A stretch of 36,974 nt of DNA from Clostridia bacterium (GCA_017549265.1 JAFYVF010000008.1:1-36974), one strand, 5' to 3'. Shown: positions 1,209 to 25,651, counted from the first letter of the stretch. Notes: a model not told the origin generated them from the sequence alone. Program-made: numbers and translations.

Positions 1209-3413
1209 TTATTTTTCTTCTAACAGTTTAATCACATAATCAATATTGATTTTATTGCGTTCCCGAAGTTCGTGCAGGCGGACAGCTAAATCGGTGCGAA
1301 TCCGTTCCCGATTGGCAATGATTCTGTCTGCTTTGGAAGAAAAGCTCATTCTGGTGAATTCTAAAAGGCCCATGCAGGTATCCTGCCCAAAATATTTCAT
1401 CACGCTTTGCACCTTGGGGTCATAAGCAAGACCGATGGCAGGCACATTGGCGGTGAAGGCATAAATCAGAAGATGGAGTCTCATCCCCACAGCAAACAGA
1501 GAAGATTGTGCCAAAGCGATACAGGTGTCTGCCGAAAGCCGTTTGGTAACACAGGGGGAGTTGGTCAGTTTTGCATATTTTTGGTTGAGTGCCACATCCT
1601 GAGGGAACTGCATCGGAACAAAGAGCAATTCGCAGCCGTGTTTTTTCTTAATGTCTTTTAAGGCATCCAGCAGTTCTGCTTCAAAGAGGGGAACGGTTTT
1701 CCACTCACGAAGGGACACCATCACATAGGGTTTTCCGTTTAAATCGTAGCGGTACAGCAGGGAATCTGCCTGTTCGGTGTTAATATCGGTCAAGGCAAGA
1801 ACAGGGTCGCAGGTCACTGCGGTTTTGGGAGAAATGATACCCCATTCGTTCAACAAATCCTGAGAGTCTTCTTCCCGAAGGGTAATCACGTCCACCCGAT
1901 TTAAAACATTTTTGGTGCGTTTTAAGTTTTGTTTTTTGTTCACAGGACCGATACCGTTGGCATAGAGCATCACTTTGTTATTCTGTTTTTTTGCCATGCG
2001 GATTAAGGTGAGATAGTAAAGCAAAGATTTGGTGGAGGTGGCATCCTGGATAATGCTTCCTCCTCCCGAAATAAACAGACGGGATTCTTTTAACGCTTTA
2101 CGGATGGCAAACAGATTCCAGCGACTTACGGCATTTACCTGATAATTTCGTTTGGTATCGCCGGGGCGGTTGGATAAAATGGTGATGCCCATATCCGGGT
2201 CGTATTCTCTGATATCTTTGATAATTTTCTTTAAAATGGCATCATCACCGGAGTTACGGAACCCGTAATAGCCGGAAAGAACAATATCGCTCTTTTTCAG
2301 TTCAAAAAGAAGCTGTTGATACACGCCGATGGCATCCTCGGTCATTCGTTTGGCAGAATATTCGGTCAACACCAAATTCTGTAAGCCCGAAACGGTTTCT
2401 TCTTTCAGATTTTTTTCCATTCGGTAGGCATCGCAGATGGCACGTACCAGTTTATTCTCGGTGGGAGCTTCCAAGCCACGGCAGGTAAAGTTGGTGCTTC
2501 TCATATTGGAGAAATCTTTCACGGTAAGGATGCCGTGATGACCGTAGCTACCTGTCAATACCACGATTTTTCCTGCTGCCATTGCTTCCAATGCTGCACG
2601 GGAAATTCCCACAAACACGTCTGCCAATGCAATAATTTTGTTCACATCGTTTCGTTTGCCTGCCATAATGACGGTGCGGTTTGTTAAAGTGCGGTTGATT
2701 TCTTCTGCTTTTTGGGAAAGTTCCTCGTAGGCATCTCCGTCACCAACAATCACAATCTGCACGTCTTTTAATTTGCGGTTTAATTCTTCTGCACGTTGTA
2801 AAAGCAGATACGCACTGTCGCAGTTTCCCTTTTCCAAACGGCACACGCAAACGATTTTTTTGGAGTGTTCTTTGATTCCTAATTCGTTCATGAGCTCACG
2901 GTCAGGCTTTACTCCAACAAATTCCTTTTCGTTAATGCCGTTGACAGTGATGGTGATATCCTTACTTTTCATTTTGCTGTTTCGGATTAAGTGACGCTTT
3001 AAGTCATCCGACACAACCAAACATTTATCTCCCCAAACGGTGAATTTTTTCACAAAAGAATTTTTGGTAAAGGCAAAATGCAGGGTGGATACAAAACCGA
3101 ATTTCAGTTTTTTCTTCAGCATATGTACAATGAGATTGGGAATTCTGGCATGAGAATGCACAATGTCGAACTGTTCTTTTTGGATCAGTTCTTTCATGGT
3201 TTTGTAAGAAGTGATAATATCCTTGGGCGCTTTGGAGGAGAGGGGAGCATAGGTATGCTCAATGCCGCATTTTTTCAGCTCGTCCTCAAAAATACCGCCT
3301 TCGGAAATGACTTGTACCGTGTGACCTGCTGCCACCAGTCCTTTTGCCAGTTCTAAAATATGAGTTTCAGCACCGCCGATATCCATTTTCATGGATGCCA
3401 GTAATATTTTCAT
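1209..3413 (-). CDS. Fusion protein with an N-terminal GT4 glycosyltransferase and a C-terminal CsaB-like polysaccharide pyruvyl transferase
   Basis: 734 aa. The N-terminal half has the GT4 signature (MKILL..DIGGAETH.., ..ALEAMAAGK.VV..). The C-terminal half (from about residue 375, ISGYYGFRNSGDDAIL..GGGS.IQD..S) matches the pyruvyl-transferase/CsaB family as I remember it. Confidence 0.8.
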   Translation of the reverse strand: MKILLASMKMDIGGAETHILELAKGLVAAGHTVQVISEGGIFEDELKKCGIEHTYAPLSSKAPKDIITSYKTMKELIQKEQFDIVHSHARIPNLIVHMLKKKLKFGFVSTLHFAFTKNSFVKKFTVWGDKCLVVSDDLKRHLIRNSKMKSKDITITVNGINEKEFVGVKPDRELMNELGIKEHSKKIVCVCRLEKGNCDSAYLLLQRAEELNRKLKDVQIVIVGDGDAYEELSQKAEEINRTLTNRTVIMAGKRNDVNKIIALADVFVGISRAALEAMAAGKIVVLTGSYGHHGILTVKDFSNMRSTNFTCRGLEAPTENKLVRAICDAYRMEKNLKEETVSGLQNLVLTEYSAKRMTEDAIGVYQQLLFELKKSDIVLSGYYGFRNSGDDAILKKIIKDIREYDPDMGITILSNRPGDTKRNYQVNAVSRWNLFAIRKALKESRLFISGGGSIIQDATSTKSLLYYLTLIRMAKKQNNKVMLYANGIGPVNKKQNLKRTKNVLNRVDVITLREEDSQDLLNEWGIISPKTAVTCDPVLALTDINTEQADSLLYRYDLNGKPYVMVSLREWKTVPLFEAELLDALKDIKKKHGCELLFVPMQFPQDVALNQKYAKLTNSPCVTKRLSADTCIALAQSSLFAVGMRLHLLIYAFTANVPAIGLAYDPKVQSVMKYFGQDTCMGLLEFTRMSFSSKADRIIANRERIRTDLAVRLHELRERNKINIDYVIKLLEEK

Positions 3414-4095: not shown

Positions 4096-5157
4096 TTATG
4101 CTTTGTTTTTTTTGCGGAGATAACGTTTTCTGCGCATTTCTCTGAAAATTTGTTCACCGCGGTGTACCGCCCAGTTGGTAAAGCGGGAGAAGACCACTTC
4201 AATTTCGCCTAGGAATTCGGTAAATTCACCGTTGAAGCCTTTTTTGAAGCGATACAGACCATATAAGGGGTTGTCTTCGCTCAAATCACCGGACACGCCA
4301 CGGAAATCGTAAATATCGCAGCCTTTTTCAATGGACCAGCGAATCATTTCCCACTGGAGCTGATAGTTGGGCATCACGTTACGGTATGCATTGCCGGATG
4401 CACCGTATAAGTACCACACTTTGTTGCCGTAGTAGATGGCAAGGGTACCTGCGATGGGTTTCCCTTCAAAATCCGCCATATACAGACGGGCATTGTCTCC
4501 GTAAACATCCAGCATTTTTTCAAAATAGGAAGCAGGACGTACCACAAATTCGTCACGAAGACCGGTTTCTTCCATCAAACGCTGGAAGTCTTTTACGTCT
4601 TCTTTGCCGCCTAAACGGACAGTTACGCCTTTTTTCACGGAAAGACGGATGTTGTAACGGGTTTTGGAATGAAAAATATCAAATACTTCTTCTTCGGTTT
4701 TTCCTGCCACGTCCAGACGGAACACAAAGCAAGGCTGAATCCCTTCAAAGTTTTTGCTTCCGGGAATGATTTTAAAGCCGGCATCGGTTAAATTTTGTTT
4801 GAATGCTTCGTTATCGCATTTTACGTCCGGGTCTGCCTTGAATACGTATGCCTTATGTTTTTTGGCAAGTTTTTTAATCCCGTCGTATAGTTCTTTTAAG
4901 GTTTCCTTATCGTCCAAATTGCAAACGGGACCTCTGGGAGAATACATAATGGTTCTTTTAATGACGGGAACGGGACGGATTAACACGCTCATAGCGCCTT
5001 TGATTTTATTGTTGCTATCGGTACAGATTAAAATCACGTTTTTCCAGTCCGGTTTCATCTGAGCCCAGAGAACAGACTGCATAAAGTGCCCCTTAGGATG
5101 ATTTTTATTAAATTCTTCGTATTCTTCGTATCTATCTTTTGTGAGTTCGGTTACCAT
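4096..5157 (-). CDS. FemAB-family peptidoglycan aminoacyltransferase (FemX/MurM-like)
   Basis: 353 aa. The N-terminus EEYEEF...HP.GHFMQS..WA..K and overall length are typical of the FemAB family. The start overlaps the gatD stop by 26 nt. Confidence 0.8.
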   Translation of the reverse strand: MVTELTKDRYEEYEEFNKNHPKGHFMQSVLWAQMKPDWKNVILICTDSNNKIKGAMSVLIRPVPVIKRTIMYSPRGPVCNLDDKETLKELYDGIKKLAKKHKAYVFKADPDVKCDNEAFKQNLTDAGFKIIPGSKNFEGIQPCFVFRLDVAGKTEEEVFDIFHSKTRYNIRLSVKKGVTVRLGGKEDVKDFQRLMEETGLRDEFVVRPASYFEKMLDVYGDNARLYMADFEGKPIAGTLAIYYGNKVWYLYGASGNAYRNVMPNYQLQWEMIRWSIEKGCDIYDFRGVSGDLSEDNPLYGLYRFKKGFNGEFTEFLGEIEVVFSRFTNWAVHRGEQIFREMRRKRYLRKKNKA

Positions 5158-5863
5158 AGTTTAAGACATATCCTTTCGCAAGTTTTTCATGTTCGCATGC
5201 AATGGGAGCAAGCTCCGGGAACGAACCGTATTTTTTTTGGATTGCTTTTCCGATGAGCAAGTCGCACACTTCCGGATTTTTTGGCAGGAGCGGACCGGAA
5301 AGGTGCGTGCCGATAAAGCTTTTTACGATGGCACCTTCCGTTTGGTCTTCCCCGTTGTTGCCGTGACCGCTTAAAACGGTTCCCAAGGGGTCAGCGCCGG
5401 GTGCCAGACGAGTTCTTCCCGTGTGGTTTTCAAAGCCTGCCAGAATCCCCAAAGGAGAATCAACAGCCACATTGCCGATCAGCTTTTCTGCTCCGGCTTC
5501 GGTGGTCATGGGAATAAGCCCAAGCCCTTCGTGGACAGCACCTTCTGCCACAAAGGAATGTCCCAGCAGGGGGAATCCCGTTGCCACCGCTAAGAGAACA
5601 CCTTCCTCATCACGGTAGCGAAGCAATTCTTCCCGATGGTTTTTTAGTTTTTCTGCAATTTTTTGCAAGTCTTTTTCACTTGCGCCACCTAAATAAACAA
5701 TATCTACATCTGTCAAGTCGATTTCTTCCGAAAAGGGGAGGGAAATCACCTCTAATTCAATGTTACGGAGACGGCACCGTTTTTCAAATACTTTCATGTT
5801 TCCCCGGTCGCCGTATAAATTCAAAAGTTCGGGGAATAAATGCAGTAATGTCAGTTTCATCAT
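5132..5863 (-). CDS. gatD: GatD-like (CobQ-type GATase) partner of MurT, with both catalytic residues substituted
   Basis: 243 aa, collinear without gaps with S. aureus GatD as I recall it (LNLY.D.GN, GFENH.GRT, G.GNN.ED..EG, GP.LPKN). It has A94 (GCA, 5582-5584) where Cys94 sits and S189 (TCC, 5297-5299) where His189 sits. Confidence 0.85.
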   Translation of the reverse strand: MMKLTLLHLFPELLNLYGDRGNMKVFEKRCRLRNIELEVISLPFSEEIDLTDVDIVYLGGASEKDLQKIAEKLKNHREELLRYRDEEGVLLAVATGFPLLGHSFVAEGAVHEGLGLIPMTTEAGAEKLIGNVAVDSPLGILAGFENHTGRTRLAPGADPLGTVLSGHGNNGEDQTEGAIVKSFIGTHLSGPLLPKNPEVCDLLIGKAIQKKYGSFPELAPIACEHEKLAKGYVLNYGNRTHKR

Positions 5864-7218
5864 ACTTCCCCTTTCTGAATGGTTTTTCCAAATGCTTTTT
5901 CTGCTTTTAGCAGTTCTTTCTTGGCATCAAAAATCAAAGTATAATTCACCAGAAGGTAAACCACTTCGCAGTCGGTTTCCAACAATTCCAGACCCAGTGT
6001 GACAGGATTTTCATTCACCTTCACGTCTTCCACATCTGCATAGAACCAGCGAACCGCCATATCGTGGCATCGTTTTCCTGCGGCACCGTGTGCCACGCAG
6101 TCGGATAACAGTTCAAAATCCACATCGTAAAGCCAGGAAATATCTATGCCGTCGGAGGGCATATCGTTGATGCCGACCACAACCGCTTTTTTACGGGGGT
6201 CATTTTTTAAGGTAGCAATCGCCTGATTGAAGCCTGCGGGATTTTTTGCTAAGTTCAAAATGACCGGTTTTTCTAAGAAAAATTCTTCCATGCGGGCAGT
6301 CTGGGTTTCGTAATCGGCAAAAATTTCGGTATAGTTATGAATTTTTAAGTTCACGGTTTCTGCCACCGCAATGGACGCCAGCGCATTGTATAAATTATAG
6401 AATCCCAATAAGGGGGTTTTTACTTCTTGCTTGCCGTTTAGCAGGAACGAAAGGGTGGGTGAAAGCTCCACGTTGCTTGCGCTAAAATCGGGTTCGGGAC
6501 GTTTGAAATCACACCCTTCGCAGAAGAAATCTCCCAACTGGTTATAGTGATAGAAGTTGTAAGACAATTCGCTTCCGCAAAACAGACAGGTTCTTCCTTC
6601 TTTGGTTTCGGTTTTGGGCTGATTGGTTTCTTCCGAAACACCAAAAATCACGTGAGGATTCTCCACACTCTTGGTGAAAGAAGCGCACATGGGGTCATCC
6701 CCGTTTAACACGAGCGTTGCATTGGGTGCTTTTTTTACAGCGATTTTCAGCTGTTCCAACGTTTCGGTGATTTCACCGTAACGGTCCATCTGATCACGGA
6801 ACAGGTTGGTGATTACAATCACGTCAGGTGTCAGATAATCAAACACGATTTTAGCACTGGCTTCATCAATTTCCAGCACAGCATAGTCTGCCTTCAGGGA
6901 GCCAAACAGCCCTGCAGTACTGATAAAAGCTGTGGCAATTCCGTCCAGCATATTGGCACCCACCGTATTACACACTGCGGTGTGCCCCGATTCTGTGACG
7001 AAGGTGTTAATCATATTGTTGGTGGTGGTTTTTCCGTTGGTACCCAGCACACAGATAATTTTTTCTTTCACTTTGGGTGCAAGCAGTTCTAACGCCTGGG
7101 GACAAATCTTTAAGGCAATTCTGCCCGGTGCGGAAGAGCTTTTGGTGCCCATCAGCTTTCCTGCCACGATGAGTAATTTGCAAACTATTACGGCTAACGC
7201 CAGTCGCAGTTGTTTCAT
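5860..7218 (-). CDS. murT: MurT, Mur-ligase-family lipid II isoglutaminyl synthase subunit
   Basis: 452 aa with P-loop GTNGKTTT, EIDEAS, TNLFRDQMDRYGE, a Cys4 ribbon (CLFC...CEGC) and the C-terminal DUF1727-like segment NDMPSDGIDISWLYDVDFE. There is an ATGA overlap with gatD. Confidence 0.9.
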   Translation of the reverse strand: MKQLRLALAVIVCKLLIVAGKLMGTKSSSAPGRIALKICPQALELLAPKVKEKIICVLGTNGKTTTNNMINTFVTESGHTAVCNTVGANMLDGIATAFISTAGLFGSLKADYAVLEIDEASAKIVFDYLTPDVIVITNLFRDQMDRYGEITETLEQLKIAVKKAPNATLVLNGDDPMCASFTKSVENPHVIFGVSEETNQPKTETKEGRTCLFCGSELSYNFYHYNQLGDFFCEGCDFKRPEPDFSASNVELSPTLSFLLNGKQEVKTPLLGFYNLYNALASIAVAETVNLKIHNYTEIFADYETQTARMEEFFLEKPVILNLAKNPAGFNQAIATLKNDPRKKAVVVGINDMPSDGIDISWLYDVDFELLSDCVAHGAAGKRCHDMAVRWFYADVEDVKVNENPVTLGLELLETDCEVVYLLVNYTLIFDAKKELLKAEKAFGKTIQKGEV

Positions 7219-11447: not shown

Positions 11448-11476
11448 AAAAAGCACCCTCAGGGGTGCTTTTTTTA
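11448..11476. terminator. Bidirectional rho-independent terminator between convergent nfnB and the patatin gene
   Basis: AAAAAGCACCC-TCAG-GGGTGCTTTTTTT, with A and T runs on both sides. Confidence 0.75.
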
Positions 11477-12571
11477 TGCAAATGTGGAGAGGAAAATTCC
11501 GACTGTTTCTTTGGATAAAACTCCTGTATGAGAGCGAATATGGCGGAAATTTCGTGGTAGTCCTTTGCTTCTGCAATGTATTTTTCGACGGACTTCCTTT
11601 AGGAAAGAATCGGCGGTATAGATGCGGTAGGGGCTTAGCTTTAACAGTCTTGCCGTGATTTCTGCGGCATTTTTGACGACTGCTTCCGAGGAGGCATCTT
11701 CGGGGAACAATTTTTTGAAAACAGAATTCTGTGTTCTTTTCAGCAGATAGCGGCAACGTGCAAGGGCAACCTGTTTTCTTTGGGATAACACGCGAAAGGT
11801 GTTTGTTTGAAATGTGAACGCATCCCCTTCATATACGCCAAAGGTTTTCATGGCATCCAAATACCCCAGGCGAATATTGCGTTCCGTATTTTCCTTGCGG
11901 AACAGAAGCCAGTTTCCCAGGTCCCACTTTGGGAAAATGGGAATCACGGAGCTGTCATTGGCAAAGGGCGTTTTTTTCGTACCCCATTCGTCCAGACAAA
12001 CGGCAATCACATTGTGGGCTCCTTTTTTCTTTGCCAGGGCAATGGGCAAGTTATCAGAGTAACCTCCATCGATGTAATCAACTCCCCGGATATTATGGCA
12101 ACAAGCAGCAGGGAAGCAGGCAGTGGTTGCCATCAGGTAATCGGGCAACATTCCACTAGGGATATCCTCGGTAAACACCTGACAGGGAGAAAGGTCTTGT
12201 TTTTTTACCAATACCATTCCCAGGGGAATCTGAGAGGCACGGATTTTTTCTTCCTGAAGATGGTTTTTCAGAAGTTTCTGCAAGCCGTTTCTTTGGATTC
12301 CGCCTTGATGGAAAAATGCTTTGGCATACTCTAAAAAATGCGGTTCTTTCGGAAAATCAAAGATTGCCGTGGTATTTAAGCTTTTCCACAAATTTACTGC
12401 TGTGTCGTAGGAATTCTGAATGATGAGTGCGCCGTTTAAAGCCCCCACCGAAGTTCCTGTGATAATATCAGGACGGATGTTCAGTTCCCGTAGTGCCTTC
12501 CACACACCAATCTGATAGGAACCACGAGAACCTCCGCCTGCTAAAACCAGCCCTGTTTTCATTTTTTTCAC
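11474..12571 (-). CDS. Patatin-like phospholipase family protein
   Basis: GGGSRGSYQIG oxyanion motif, GTSVGA nucleophile elbow, IDGGYSDNLP catalytic Asp motif, and a C-terminal extension of about 130 aa of unknown function. Confidence 0.85.
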   Translation of the reverse strand: MKKMKTGLVLAGGGSRGSYQIGVWKALRELNIRPDIITGTSVGALNGALIIQNSYDTAVNLWKSLNTTAIFDFPKEPHFLEYAKAFFHQGGIQRNGLQKLLKNHLQEEKIRASQIPLGMVLVKKQDLSPCQVFTEDIPSGMLPDYLMATTACFPAACCHNIRGVDYIDGGYSDNLPIALAKKKGAHNVIAVCLDEWGTKKTPFANDSSVIPIFPKWDLGNWLLFRKENTERNIRLGYLDAMKTFGVYEGDAFTFQTNTFRVLSQRKQVALARCRYLLKRTQNSVFKKLFPEDASSEAVVKNAAEITARLLKLSPYRIYTADSFLKEVRRKIHCRSKGLPRNFRHIRSHTGVLSKETVGIFLSTFA

Positions 12572-21754: not shown

Positions 21755-21819
21755 AACTATCGGAGTTTGCATTTTTTATGTAAAAAATAATTATATTTAT
21801 TATTTTGGAGGGATGTTCT

Positions 21820-22740
21820 ATGAAAATGACCAAAGAACAGTTATTTGAGGCAGCACTTGCCCTAAACGGAGACGACAAGAAATATCAGATTACTGTGGAA
21901 GGGGACACCATTGTCACCCGTGTGAAATGGATGGATGCCACTTTCTTTTCTCCAGATGCAATCACCACTGAGATGCAGGAATTTGAGTATCGTGTTCGGA
22001 TAGTTTCAAACGGCAAATATACAGAACTTGATAAGTCTGTTTCCAAGAAAAAGTCGGCAGGCCGGGGTGGAGTTGATATGAACAAAAGTGTCTTTGTGGG
22101 CAAACAAGTTTCTTTTAGCAAAACTATTGGCGTAGGGAAAGATCATCAAACGGGTGAAACAGGGATTATCAGCAACACCTTTTATTCTGAAGAATATAAA
22201 GCCCCTGTGAGAAACCTTTTAAAAGAATTTGGCTACAAGAAAAAAATGAGCACCATGGGAAAGATTCTGTTGATTGGTGGTATTGTTGCGGCAGTGATTG
22301 CTGCAGTGGTGATTGTTCTGTTTTGTCTGTTTGGAAATAAGCATCCTGTTTCGGTGGAAAACTTTGAATCCATAGCGAAAGACTATGGCTATCAGGTAGC
22401 TGTTGACAGAAATTTGGAAAGCCGGTATGATCATGTGCAATCAGTTCGTATTGCACTGGATAGCCCGGATGATTATCAAATTGATTTATATGTTTTAATC
22501 AACGAAGACTATGCGAAACAGGTGTTTGAAACCAATAAAATACAGCTGCAGCAACTTGCAGACAGTTCTTCTTCCAAAGTAAGCAGCAGTGTAAGCGTTT
22601 TTAATTATGATAAATATGCTGCATCCACATCAGACTCCTACCTGTATGTTGCAAGAATTGATAATACCGTTGTTTTTGCAAAAACCGGTATTGAGGATCA
22701 ATCGGAAGTGGAAGCATTTATAAACGCCATCGGTTATTAA
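21820..22740 (+). CDS. Single-pass membrane protein of unknown function (paralogue 1)
   Basis: 306 aa from the ATG with GGAGG 7 nt upstream. It has a cytoplasmic N-domain, KKKM followed by a TM helix (ILLIGGIVAAVIAAVVIVLFCLF), and an external C-domain. It is clearly homologous to the 24062 gene. Confidence 0.7.
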   Translation: MKMTKEQLFEAALALNGDDKKYQITVEGDTIVTRVKWMDATFFSPDAITTEMQEFEYRVRIVSNGKYTELDKSVSKKKSAGRGGVDMNKSVFVGKQVSFSKTIGVGKDHQTGETGIISNTFYSEEYKAPVRNLLKEFGYKKKMSTMGKILLIGGIVAAVIAAVVIVLFCLFGNKHPVSVENFESIAKDYGYQVAVDRNLESRYDHVQSVRIALDSPDDYQIDLYVLINEDYAKQVFETNKIQLQQLADSSSSKVSSSVSVFNYDKYAASTSDSYLYVARIDNTVVFAKTGIEDQSEVEAFINAIGY

Positions 22741-24061: not shown

Positions 24062-24889
24062 ATGAGATTGAATAAGAGTGCGTTGTTGGACGCTGCTCAG
24101 AAATTAAACGGAGATGATAAGAATTACTTGGTTCGTGTGGAAGGAAATAAAATCATTACCTCTGTAAAATGGCAGGATGAAACTTTCTTTTCTCCCGATT
24201 CGGTAACTGATGAAATGCGTTCTTTTTCGTATACTGTGCAGATTTTAGACAATGGGAAATATCAGGAGATGGCACAGGAAAAAGTGAGCAAAGCTTTTGC
24301 TGCAAATGAATATAAAACACCTGTGAGAACCTTGCTAAAAGAACACGGTTGTAAAAAGAAGATGGGAAAAGGCACGAAAATTTTCATCTGTGTTGCCATT
24401 TTTTTAGCGATACTGATTGCAACCGTGGGGGTATTGGTTTTCACTCTTATGAATAAAAAACCTATCAGTGCACAGGAGTTTCGTGCAAAATCGGAAGCTC
24501 AAGGCTATCAGGTGAGCGTTTTGGAAGATATGCAACGATTCGAAAACAAAGTGGGTGTGAAGTTTGAAACGCTTGGTGATTTTGAAGAATCTTCTTTGGT
24601 AGCTTATGACGAAGAAGATAAATTTCGGGTTGTATTTTTGGATTACGAAGATTCCCGTAGCGCTGAAGAAGTGGTAGTGGCATGTATGAACGAAATGGAA
24701 AGTGCTGCCTTGCGAAAAGGGAAACCGTCAAATGCCATCATTTTTTCTGAACATTATGATAGAGTCACCATGGATACCATCAAAGAATTCCGGCATCTTG
24801 TGAGAATTGATGATACCTTGATTTTAGTATCAACCAAGGCGGAAAACAGAGCAGAGGTAAAAGCATTTATTGAATCTTTGGGATATTAA
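24062..24889 (+). CDS. Single-pass membrane protein of unknown function (paralogue 2)
   Basis: 275 aa with an AGGAGG RBS and the same architecture as the 21820 gene. Shared blocks are LNGDDK.Y...VEG..I.T.VKW.D.TFFSPD, NGKY, EYK.PVR.LLKE.G.KKKM and a C-terminal RID.T......E.....V.AFI...GY. Confidence 0.7.
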   Translation: MRLNKSALLDAAQKLNGDDKNYLVRVEGNKIITSVKWQDETFFSPDSVTDEMRSFSYTVQILDNGKYQEMAQEKVSKAFAANEYKTPVRTLLKEHGCKKKMGKGTKIFICVAIFLAILIATVGVLVFTLMNKKPISAQEFRAKSEAQGYQVSVLEDMQRFENKVGVKFETLGDFEESSLVAYDEEDKFRVVFLDYEDSRSAEEVVVACMNEMESAALRKGKPSNAIIFSEHYDRVTMDTIKEFRHLVRIDDTLILVSTKAENRAEVKAFIESLGY

Positions 24890-24919: not shown

Positions 24920-25441
24920 ATGAAAAAAATAGCAGTATTATTAGCAATGATGTTCTGTGTAACCCTTTTGGCAGCTTGCCAAAGTCAGCCTGCCAAGACG
25001 GAAGAGGGAACTCAGGAAAATCCCTTAATGAGCGCAGTTTGGACTGGATATGACAAAATGCCGTTCCCCGAATTTTTAGGGACAGCAATGGAGAATATGC
25101 CTGCGGAACTTGGGGTGGTTGAAAGTTATGAAGTCACAGCTACCGCCGGCTGGCCGGAAGGTATGAATGATATTCCGTTGGAACCTGCAGAGGGAACCGT
25201 TCCCGTGACCTACACGTTTGTGGCAGAAGCATCCGAGGGCGGCAGTGATGTTGAACAAGGGATTATCGAGTTTGCTGTGGGATTAAATGAAGATACCAAT
25301 ACCTTTGAAATTGAATGCATTTTCCTAAACGGCGAATATTTGCCTTATGAATCTATCGAGCCCGGAATGAAACCGCTTTGCTTATTAGCAGATGGCGAAG
25401 CAGATAAAATTACTGAAACGCAAGTAATAGCGGAGCCGTAA
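24920..25441 (+). CDS. Acidic lipoprotein of unknown function
   Basis: Signal peptide with lipobox LLAAC (Cys20), AGGAGG RBS, and a mature part rich in E and D. Confidence 0.75.
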   Translation: MKKIAVLLAMMFCVTLLAACQSQPAKTEEGTQENPLMSAVWTGYDKMPFPEFLGTAMENMPAELGVVESYEVTATAGWPEGMNDIPLEPAEGTVPVTYTFVAEASEGGSDVEQGIIEFAVGLNEDTNTFEIECIFLNGEYLPYESIEPGMKPLCLLADGEADKITETQVIAEP

Positions 25442-25574: not shown

Positions 25575-25651
25575 TGGCGCGCCTTGAGGGACTCGAACCC
25601 CCGACATTTCGGTTCGTAGCCGAACCCTCTATCCAGCTGAGGTAAAGGCGC
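25575..25651 (-). tRNA. tRNA-Arg (anticodon ACG), CCA encoded
   Basis: Folded by hand. Acceptor GCGCCTT/AAGGCGC, D arm CCTC-AGCTGGATA-GAGG, anticodon arm TTCGG-CTACGAA-CCGAA, T arm GGGGG-TTCGAGT-CCCTC (4 Watson-Crick pairs plus one G-T), G plus CCA. Confidence 0.92.

Follow-up and report, generated by a model that had tools for sequence, protein, structure and literature searches.

Staphylococci, streptococci and mycobacteria cannot do without the MurT/GatD complex, the lipid II isoglutaminyl synthase (glutamine-hydrolysing) that amidates lipid II, and drug developers have taken it up as a target. The systems described from Staphylococcus aureus, Streptococcus pneumoniae, Streptococcus pyogenes and Mycobacterium tuberculosis (6GS2, 6H5E, 6FQB, 9SQ9) have in common an overlapping murT-gatD operon and the GatD fold. 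Papers on the structure and biochemistry of the complex call GatD residues Cys94 and His189 conserved among the homologues they compared (PMC6113224, PMC5871853), and MurT-Asp349 is treated likewise. In S. aureus GatD, the single changes C94A, H189A and R128A each kill glutaminase activity (PMC5871853), and amidation that depends on glutamine is lost with C94S and with C94G (PMC6113224; C94G also PMC3266927). One described system that comes close to the subject of this article was made in the laboratory: S. aureus MurT paired with GatD_C94G (Munch et al. 2012, PMC3266927), a dead glutaminase beside an intact MurT. Here we describe a natural locus of similar make-up. It lies in a 36,974-nucleotide stretch of DNA from a Clostridia bacterium (GCA_017549265.1, JAFYVF010000008.1:1-36974), which we refer to as the window. 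The gene in question, gatD* (5132-5863, minus strand), encodes a 243-residue GatD homologue that has the GATase_3 fold and has lost both the glutaminase dyad and the glutamine-binding residues.

There is little doubt about the family to which GatD* belongs. Its sequence matches Pfam GATase_3 (PF07685) at 3e-24, with 86.1 bits against a gathering cutoff of 27, and its best match among solved structures is S. aureus GatD (5N9M/6GS2; 1.4e-39), followed by the S. pyogenes (9SQ9) and S. pneumoniae proteins. An AlphaFold2 model built from an input alignment of 52 sequences is of high confidence (predicted local distance difference test score, pLDDT, 92.3; predicted template modelling score 0.90). 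Foldseek superposes it on chain A of 6GS2, the GatD of the S. aureus MurT complex, with a template modelling score of 0.90 (E=1.7e-26), and the model includes the extra C-terminal helix of the class I glutamine amidotransferase fold (residues 224-239). The product does fall short of two NCBIfam models, scoring 156 bits with NF052463 (cutoff 450) and 137 bits with NF045636 (cutoff 400). We considered and rejected this as an argument for non-membership; canonical Clostridia GatDs miss the same cutoffs (245 and 215-220 bits), so the equivalog threshold is not diagnostic, the dead members scoring about 90 bits under their active relatives. The CobQ/CobB glutaminase domains share the GATase_3 Pfam family with GatD*, which has a weak NCBIfam CobQ match of 36 bits. 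Unlike them, it scores far under the cutoffs, has no CobQ synthetase domain and is partnered by MurT rather than by cobalamin genes. GatD* is a member of the GatD structural family that lacks the defining catalytic features of a glutamine-hydrolysing enzyme.

What has been lost can be read residue by residue. The register was checked with HMMER pairwise alignments and a MAFFT alignment of 122 sequences (120 database homologues and S. aureus GatD included), and both agree. At the position of the nucleophile Cys94 stands Ala94 (codon GCA, 5584-5582, minus strand as for all codons here), and the catalytic His189 is replaced by Ser189 (TCC, 5299-5297). Arg128, which sequesters glutamine, aligns with Lys127 (AAG, 5485-5483). 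The nucleophile elbow T-I-C-G-G has become A-V-A-T-G, and the HGP motif SGP. Thr95-Gly96-Phe97-Pro98 (5570-5581) stand in place of G95-G96-Y97-Q98, removing Gly95 of the oxyanion hole and the conserved Gln98, and Lys64-Asp65-Leu66 (5666-5674) in place of R-E-Q, a motif with 98-100% conservation among canonical GatDs. The first-pass annotation, made from the sequence alone, had proposed the Ala, Ser and Lys replacements, and these alignments bore it out, placing no Cys or His at the catalytic positions. It had described the first 100 or so residues as gap-free; the HMMER alignment has two compensating one-residue gaps there, near 69 and 89, although the catalytic register was right. It also understated the extent of the change, since R64, E65, Q66, G95 and Q98, all of them conserved to 97% or more across 91 canonical homologues, have given way to K, D, L, T and P. 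The scaffold motifs it listed, LNLYGDRGN, GFENHTGRT, GHGNNGEDQTEG and GPLLPKN, are all there. Of these, LNLYGDRGN (residues 13-21; 5801-5827, minus strand) is the channel-plug and interface motif that holds the equivalents of S. pneumoniae Asn28, Tyr30, Asp32 and Gly34. Like the known GatDs, then, GatD* has the LNLYGDxGN plug, GFENH and the HGP-to-xGPLLP interface motifs; unlike them it is without Cys94, His189, Arg128, Gly95, Gln98 and R64-E65-Q66. With these key residues replaced, and with the S. aureus single mutants inactive, the sequence excludes glutamine hydrolysis by the known mechanism.

This is not the peculiarity of one protein. Homologues P0001-P0030, 54-98% identical to GatD*, all lack Cys94 (Ala, Thr, Gly or Ser instead) and all have Pro for Gln98 and Leu for Gln66; most have Lys for Arg128 and Ser, Thr or Ala for His189. 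From P0031 downward among the 120 best homologues (identity 52% or less), every sequence has the Cys, Gln and Arg, and all but P0063 have His189. Among these canonical near relatives Cys94 is kept in 90 of 90 and His189 in 89, P0063 having Tyr, a contrast with the dead clade that goes well past what chance would give. A neighbour-joining tree gathers the dead sequences into one monophyletic clade, sister to the active P0031-33 group. In an exhaustive HMMER search of 1.84 billion representatives at 50% identity, the whole dead clade is a single representative, P0004, below which the score falls from 429 bits to 208 at the next match. Comparing 29 dead-clade sequences column by column with a canonical set of 91, made up of S. 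aureus GatD and 90 homologues from the databases, we found R64, E65, Q66, C94, G95, Q98, R128 and H189 each at least 97% conserved in the canonical set and substituted in the dead clade, while 54 scaffold columns, those of LNLYGDxGN, GFENH and GPLLP included, are conserved in both. A few members depart from the pattern: P0021 retains His189, with Ser at position 94 (signature KDLSTPKH), and Arg128 is retained in P0023 and P0028. These exceptions look like residues drifting at different rates after one ancestral loss.

Where selection now acts can be seen from the variability of the columns. At ten former glutaminase-site columns the Shannon entropy is 0.83 bits in the dead clade and 0.07 in canonical GatD, whereas at 16 MurT-interface and channel-plug columns (the S. 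pneumoniae Asn28/Tyr30/Asp32/Gly34 equivalents and the xGPLLP stretch among them) it is 0.12 and 0.15, and over the remainder of the protein 0.97 and 1.03. The former active-site columns now vary at the background level. Because entropy is relaxed at the old site and low at the interface and plug, the alignments indicate that selection has left the active site and remains on the fold and the MurT-facing surface. The ratio of nonsynonymous to synonymous substitution rates (dN/dS, by the Nei-Gojobori method), calculated for the window and three species representatives that are metagenome-assembled genomes (MAGs; L001-L003), is 0.08-0.15 for gatD* at dS of 0.66-1.8; murT gives 0.06-0.10, and RNase J and femX give 0.01-0.06. 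The dead GatD is a functional gene under purifying selection, with the features of a scaffold-type pseudoenzyme. The clade is carried by MAGs only, and its Genome Taxonomy Database (GTDB) species representatives are three MAGs named Clostridia bacterium. The GroEL encoded in the window is about 100% identical to that of a MAG labelled Ruminococcaceae/Oscillospiraceae bacterium and 84% identical to that of Petroclostridium. On one MAG contig, GroEL (about 100%) and MurT (86%) differ in identity to the window, and we considered recombination as the cause; the whole region is 84-89% identical at the DNA level and GroEL is simply slow-evolving, so there is no signal of it.

The partner subunit is intact. 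The gene murT (5860-7218, minus strand) encodes a 452-residue Mur-ligase-like synthetase subunit with Mur_ligase_M and MurT_C domains, matching 6FQB_A at 7e-67 and 6GS2_B at 6e-66. As in known MurTs, the P-loop (GTNGKT), the four-cysteine zinc ribbon, the DGxDxSW motif with its Asp (D359, equivalent to S. aureus D349) and the negative gate are intact, as are E116, the Mg-binding acidic residues and the loop RDQMDRYGE. We mapped the residues named in two MurT/GatD structure papers onto 22 dead-clade partners and 79 canonical ones; the 20 functional positions tested are conserved in 22/22 dead-clade partners, W360Y excepted. Invariant among the 22 are the P-loop Lys, the E108 equivalent, the DE pair and loop residues R135-D136-D139-R140-E143, along with the four zinc-ribbon cysteines, the negative gate E201/D355/D361 and K321-N322-P323. 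The exception, Tyr364 (6127-6129), occupies the position of S. pneumoniae Trp360, where W360A abolishes GatD binding, and it is Tyr in all 22. This substitution is not specific to the dead state, because S. aureus and neighbouring lineages, at least one of them paired with an active GatD, have Tyr there too. We looked for a co-evolved change in MurT, loss of Asp349 or any other, and did not find one in these partners; the few columns that differ are mostly common to neighbouring lineages, of which at least one (P0147) is paired with an active GatD.

The two genes are tightly joined. The TGA stop of murT and the ATG start of gatD* overlap as ATGA (5860-5863), which couples the two genes translationally. 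At its other end gatD* shares its last 26 nucleotides (5132-5157) with the start of a femX-like gene (4096-5157, minus strand) encoding a peptidoglycan branching transferase of the FemAB family. The order gatD then femX-like, directly 3' of murT, is kept as one operon in all relatives examined. We compared three sets of loci, namely the window with its close relatives L001-3 and L046-48, the distant dead members L038 (56%) and L041 (54%), and the nearest active relative, L039/L040 (P0033); the order RNase J, murT, gatD, femX, DUF2344, GT4/pyruvyltransferase is identical in all of them. Because the nearest active relative has that same gene order, gatD* is the positional orthologue of an active gatD, and the loss took place in situ. 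The idea that gatD* might be a divergent paralogue of active gatD was rejected at this locus on the identical order from RNase J to femX and on the sister relationship of the dead clade to the active relative. We also entertained, and dropped, the notion that the invariant C-terminal tail (KGY.LNYGNRTHKR) is an innovation of the dead clade, the nearest active relatives having a near-identical one. The YGNRTHKR stretch is probably constrained in part by dual coding with the start of the femX-like gene.

The first-pass annotation had seen in these losses the signature of a pseudoenzyme kept as a structural partner of MurT. The residue losses, the selection, the fold, the conserved interface and the intact, ATGA-coupled murT all support it, and to its account must be added the clade-wide extent of the loss, the positional orthology with active gatD and the recurrence in other MurT-linked lineages described below. 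We would go a step further and propose, as rather more probable than all else we have considered, that the glutaminase-dead GatD* is an obligatory structural or allosteric subunit of an intact MurT that amidates with free ammonia. GatD* would neither bind nor hydrolyse glutamine and would be a subunit without which MurT cannot work. MurT would activate the alpha-carboxyl of D-isoglutamate on lipid II with ATP and then amidate it, the nitrogen coming from free cytoplasmic NH3/NH4+ in place of glutamine-derived ammonia. One may speculate that the small side chains at 94, 95 and 189 leave the old pocket open as a way in for ammonia toward the conserved MurT gate. Formation of the GatD*-MurT complex, amidation of lipid II and the use of ammonia as donor are what we infer from the sequences together with a precedent. 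That precedent is the S. aureus C94G complex, which lost glutamine-dependent amidation and kept NH3-dependent amidation of lipid II at pH 8.5, while MurT alone and GatD alone were inactive with any donor (PMC3266927). Because C94G is active with NH3 and MurT alone is not, a dead GatD is enough for MurT to run on ammonia, and GatD in some form is required. By analogy the natural clade looks like the C94G mutant fixed by evolution, with the difference that GatD_C94G carries a single change made in the laboratory and was assayed at pH 8.5, and GatD* is natural, altered at many residues, fixed across a clade and under selection.

Several points weigh against an ammonia-dependent MurT. S. aureus MurT/GatD used ammonia only at pH 8.5 and not at pH 7.5 (PMC3266927), so that use of NH3 under physiological conditions would need high ammonium or some as yet hypothetical adaptation. 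MurT Asp359, the third residue of the triad, is invariant even though its His partner is lost, and has no obvious task without it; only a structural or NH4+-handling role would account for its retention. Finally, our data cover the 37-kb window and flanks of at most 10 kb around the relatives, which bears on a rival reading: MurT would be fed by a different, active class I glutaminase from some other part of the genome, a second GatD or another enzyme, and GatD* would have a regulatory role or be a spare. We consider such help in trans unlikely. GatD* occupies the ancestral slot of the sister lineage's active gatD, with the same overlaps with murT and femX, which makes it the orthologue rather than an extra copy, and conservation of its MurT-facing interface is complete. 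A genome scan also gave a single GatD locus for each of the three MAG species representatives, a weak argument in that the scan used exact peptide patterns.

Two further alternatives concern the pocket itself. Leu66, Pro98 and Arg84 are newly invariant in the dead clade and Lys127 is present in 26 of 29 members, as might be expected if the chemistry had changed, with a remodelled GatD* pocket binding or presenting a different donor and MurT ligating another amine (an amino acid, an amino-acid amide or a diamine) to the D-Glu alpha-carboxyl, or acting on another acceptor. Peptidoglycan chemotypes whose D-Glu alpha-carboxyl carries glycine, glycine amide or a diamine are reported to exist (Schleifer and Kandler 1972), and to our knowledge no genes have been assigned to them. 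Yet pocket positions 64, 94, 95 and 189 exchange one small residue for another without evident constraint, at background entropy (A/T/G/S at 94, T/S/N/G at 95 and S/T/A/H at 189 across the clade), unlike a new binding site, and MurT has no dead-clade-specific change at its substrate-binding, ATP-binding or ammonia-gate residues; we rate a change of chemistry as improbable as help in trans. The other alternative is a GatD* that is still an amidohydrolase by virtue of a rebuilt Ser/Thr catalytic set, Thr95/Ser189/Lys127 for example. Ser or Thr does stand at 95 in 25 of the 29 members and at 189 in 26, with Lys at 127 in 26, but none is invariant (some members have Asn or Gly at 95, others have Ala at 189, and 127 may be Arg or Gln), and for want of any invariant candidate such a set is unlikely. 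The other glutamine-contacting residues (Q66, Q98 and R64/E65) are lost as well, and even the conservative C94S is inactive in S. aureus (PMC6113224), so that we give a rebuilt site very little credence. We found nothing to speak for a sequencing or assembly artefact or a decaying pseudogene: the same substitutions recur in about 30 independent sequence clusters from NCBI, ENA, JGI and Logan assemblies, all intact open reading frames (ORFs) of 241-243 residues, with dN/dS of about 0.1 and a model of pLDDT 92. We take both to be ruled out for any practical purpose; the first-pass annotation had likewise argued that a change needing several substitutions is not a single sequencing error. An ammonia-dependent MurT with a scaffold GatD* is the reading with which we continue.

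Loss of the dyad is not confined to this clade. Of the 145 well-aligned representatives closest to the query, P0004 among them, 21 lack Cys94 and/or His189, and Fitch parsimony on a rough neighbour-joining tree of the 145 calls for at least 12 changes; the 14% and the 12 changes are indicative only, because the list is ordered by resemblance to a dead query and the tree is crude. Five other dyad-less lineages, less than 50% identical to the present clade and mostly to each other, have at positions 94 and 189 Ala/His (P0273), Gly/Tyr (P0249), Gly/Gln (P0271 and P0339) and Ser/Leu (P0365). Their five gatD genes (L043:3794-4507, L045:1737-2462, L049:2027-2782, L050:307-1017 and L051:835-1548) all directly follow a MurT-like ORF. 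The P-loop, E108 and D349 motifs are preserved in the three full-length MurT-like partners (L043, L045 and L049), and the D349 motif also in the partial upstream ORFs of L050 and L051. Taken furthest, the pattern might mean that there are two natural classes of MurT/GatD, the dead one having arisen recurrently (at least some 12 losses in 145), with GatD serving there only as a scaffold that activates MurT or, in the boldest form, as a remodelled donor-binding module. We regard this as a long shot. Were its boldest form true, the amine that MurT joins to the D-Glu alpha-carboxyl would not be ammonia, and this could explain the peptidoglycan chemotypes that have a substituted D-Glu, for which we know of no assigned genes.

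The classic parallel outside MurT/GatD is vertebrate carbamoyl phosphate synthetase 1 (CPS1; PMC4655335), a class I amidotransferase in which Cys has become Ser, free ammonia is used and the dead module is retained structurally; an alternative entry tunnel for ammonia has been proposed. CPS1 differs from MurT/GatD* in that its synthetase is an unrelated ATP-grasp enzyme, its dead domain is fused to it, and it is a eukaryotic protein of nitrogen disposal and not of wall synthesis. GatD* would be its bacterial counterpart, and the losses supply several independent natural experiments on how glutaminase activity disappears from ammonia-channelling enzymes. Full-text searches of open-access papers and bioRxiv found no report of a natural GatD without its dyad. 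The sequences suggest that an uncultured, gut-type lineage of Clostridia amidates its wall with free ammonia and needs GatD mainly as a scaffold, and amidation of lipid II on free ammonia is probably possible in some anaerobes. If so, wall synthesis in these organisms would be tied to the supply of ammonium and not to the glutamine pool. The indispensable contribution of GatD would then be structural or allosteric rather than catalytic, which agrees with the inactivity of S. aureus MurT alone even when given ammonia. An annotation of glutamine amidotransferase by homology would be wrong for the dead lineages, and any inference that inhibitors of the glutaminase site act broadly would fail in them.

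The window is otherwise ordinary chromosome, with genes for RNase J, KsgA, PEPCK, GroEL, RecD2, MutS2 and a GyrB/ParE-like protein. Downstream of the DUF2344 gene lies one whose product joins a GT4 glycosyltransferase to a polysaccharide pyruvyl transferase in a single fused protein (734 residues; 1209-3413, minus strand), syntenic with murT-gatD-femX in all relatives and among the fastest-evolving genes of the block (79% amino-acid identity, dN/dS about 0.1). A gene for a patatin-like phospholipase (11474-12571, minus strand) sits between an NfnAB-like pair and ksgA; the window and L038 have it, and L046, collinear in other respects, lacks it and shows a gap of only about 180 nucleotides in its place. 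On the plus strand, a GT4 glycosyltransferase gene is flanked by three ORFs of 311, 275 and 173 residues (21805-22740, 24062-24889 and 24920-25441) that match nothing in Pfam at E<=1e-5. A search of the window against Rfam picked out just two tRNAs, at 1015-1100 and 25578-25651, both on the minus strand.

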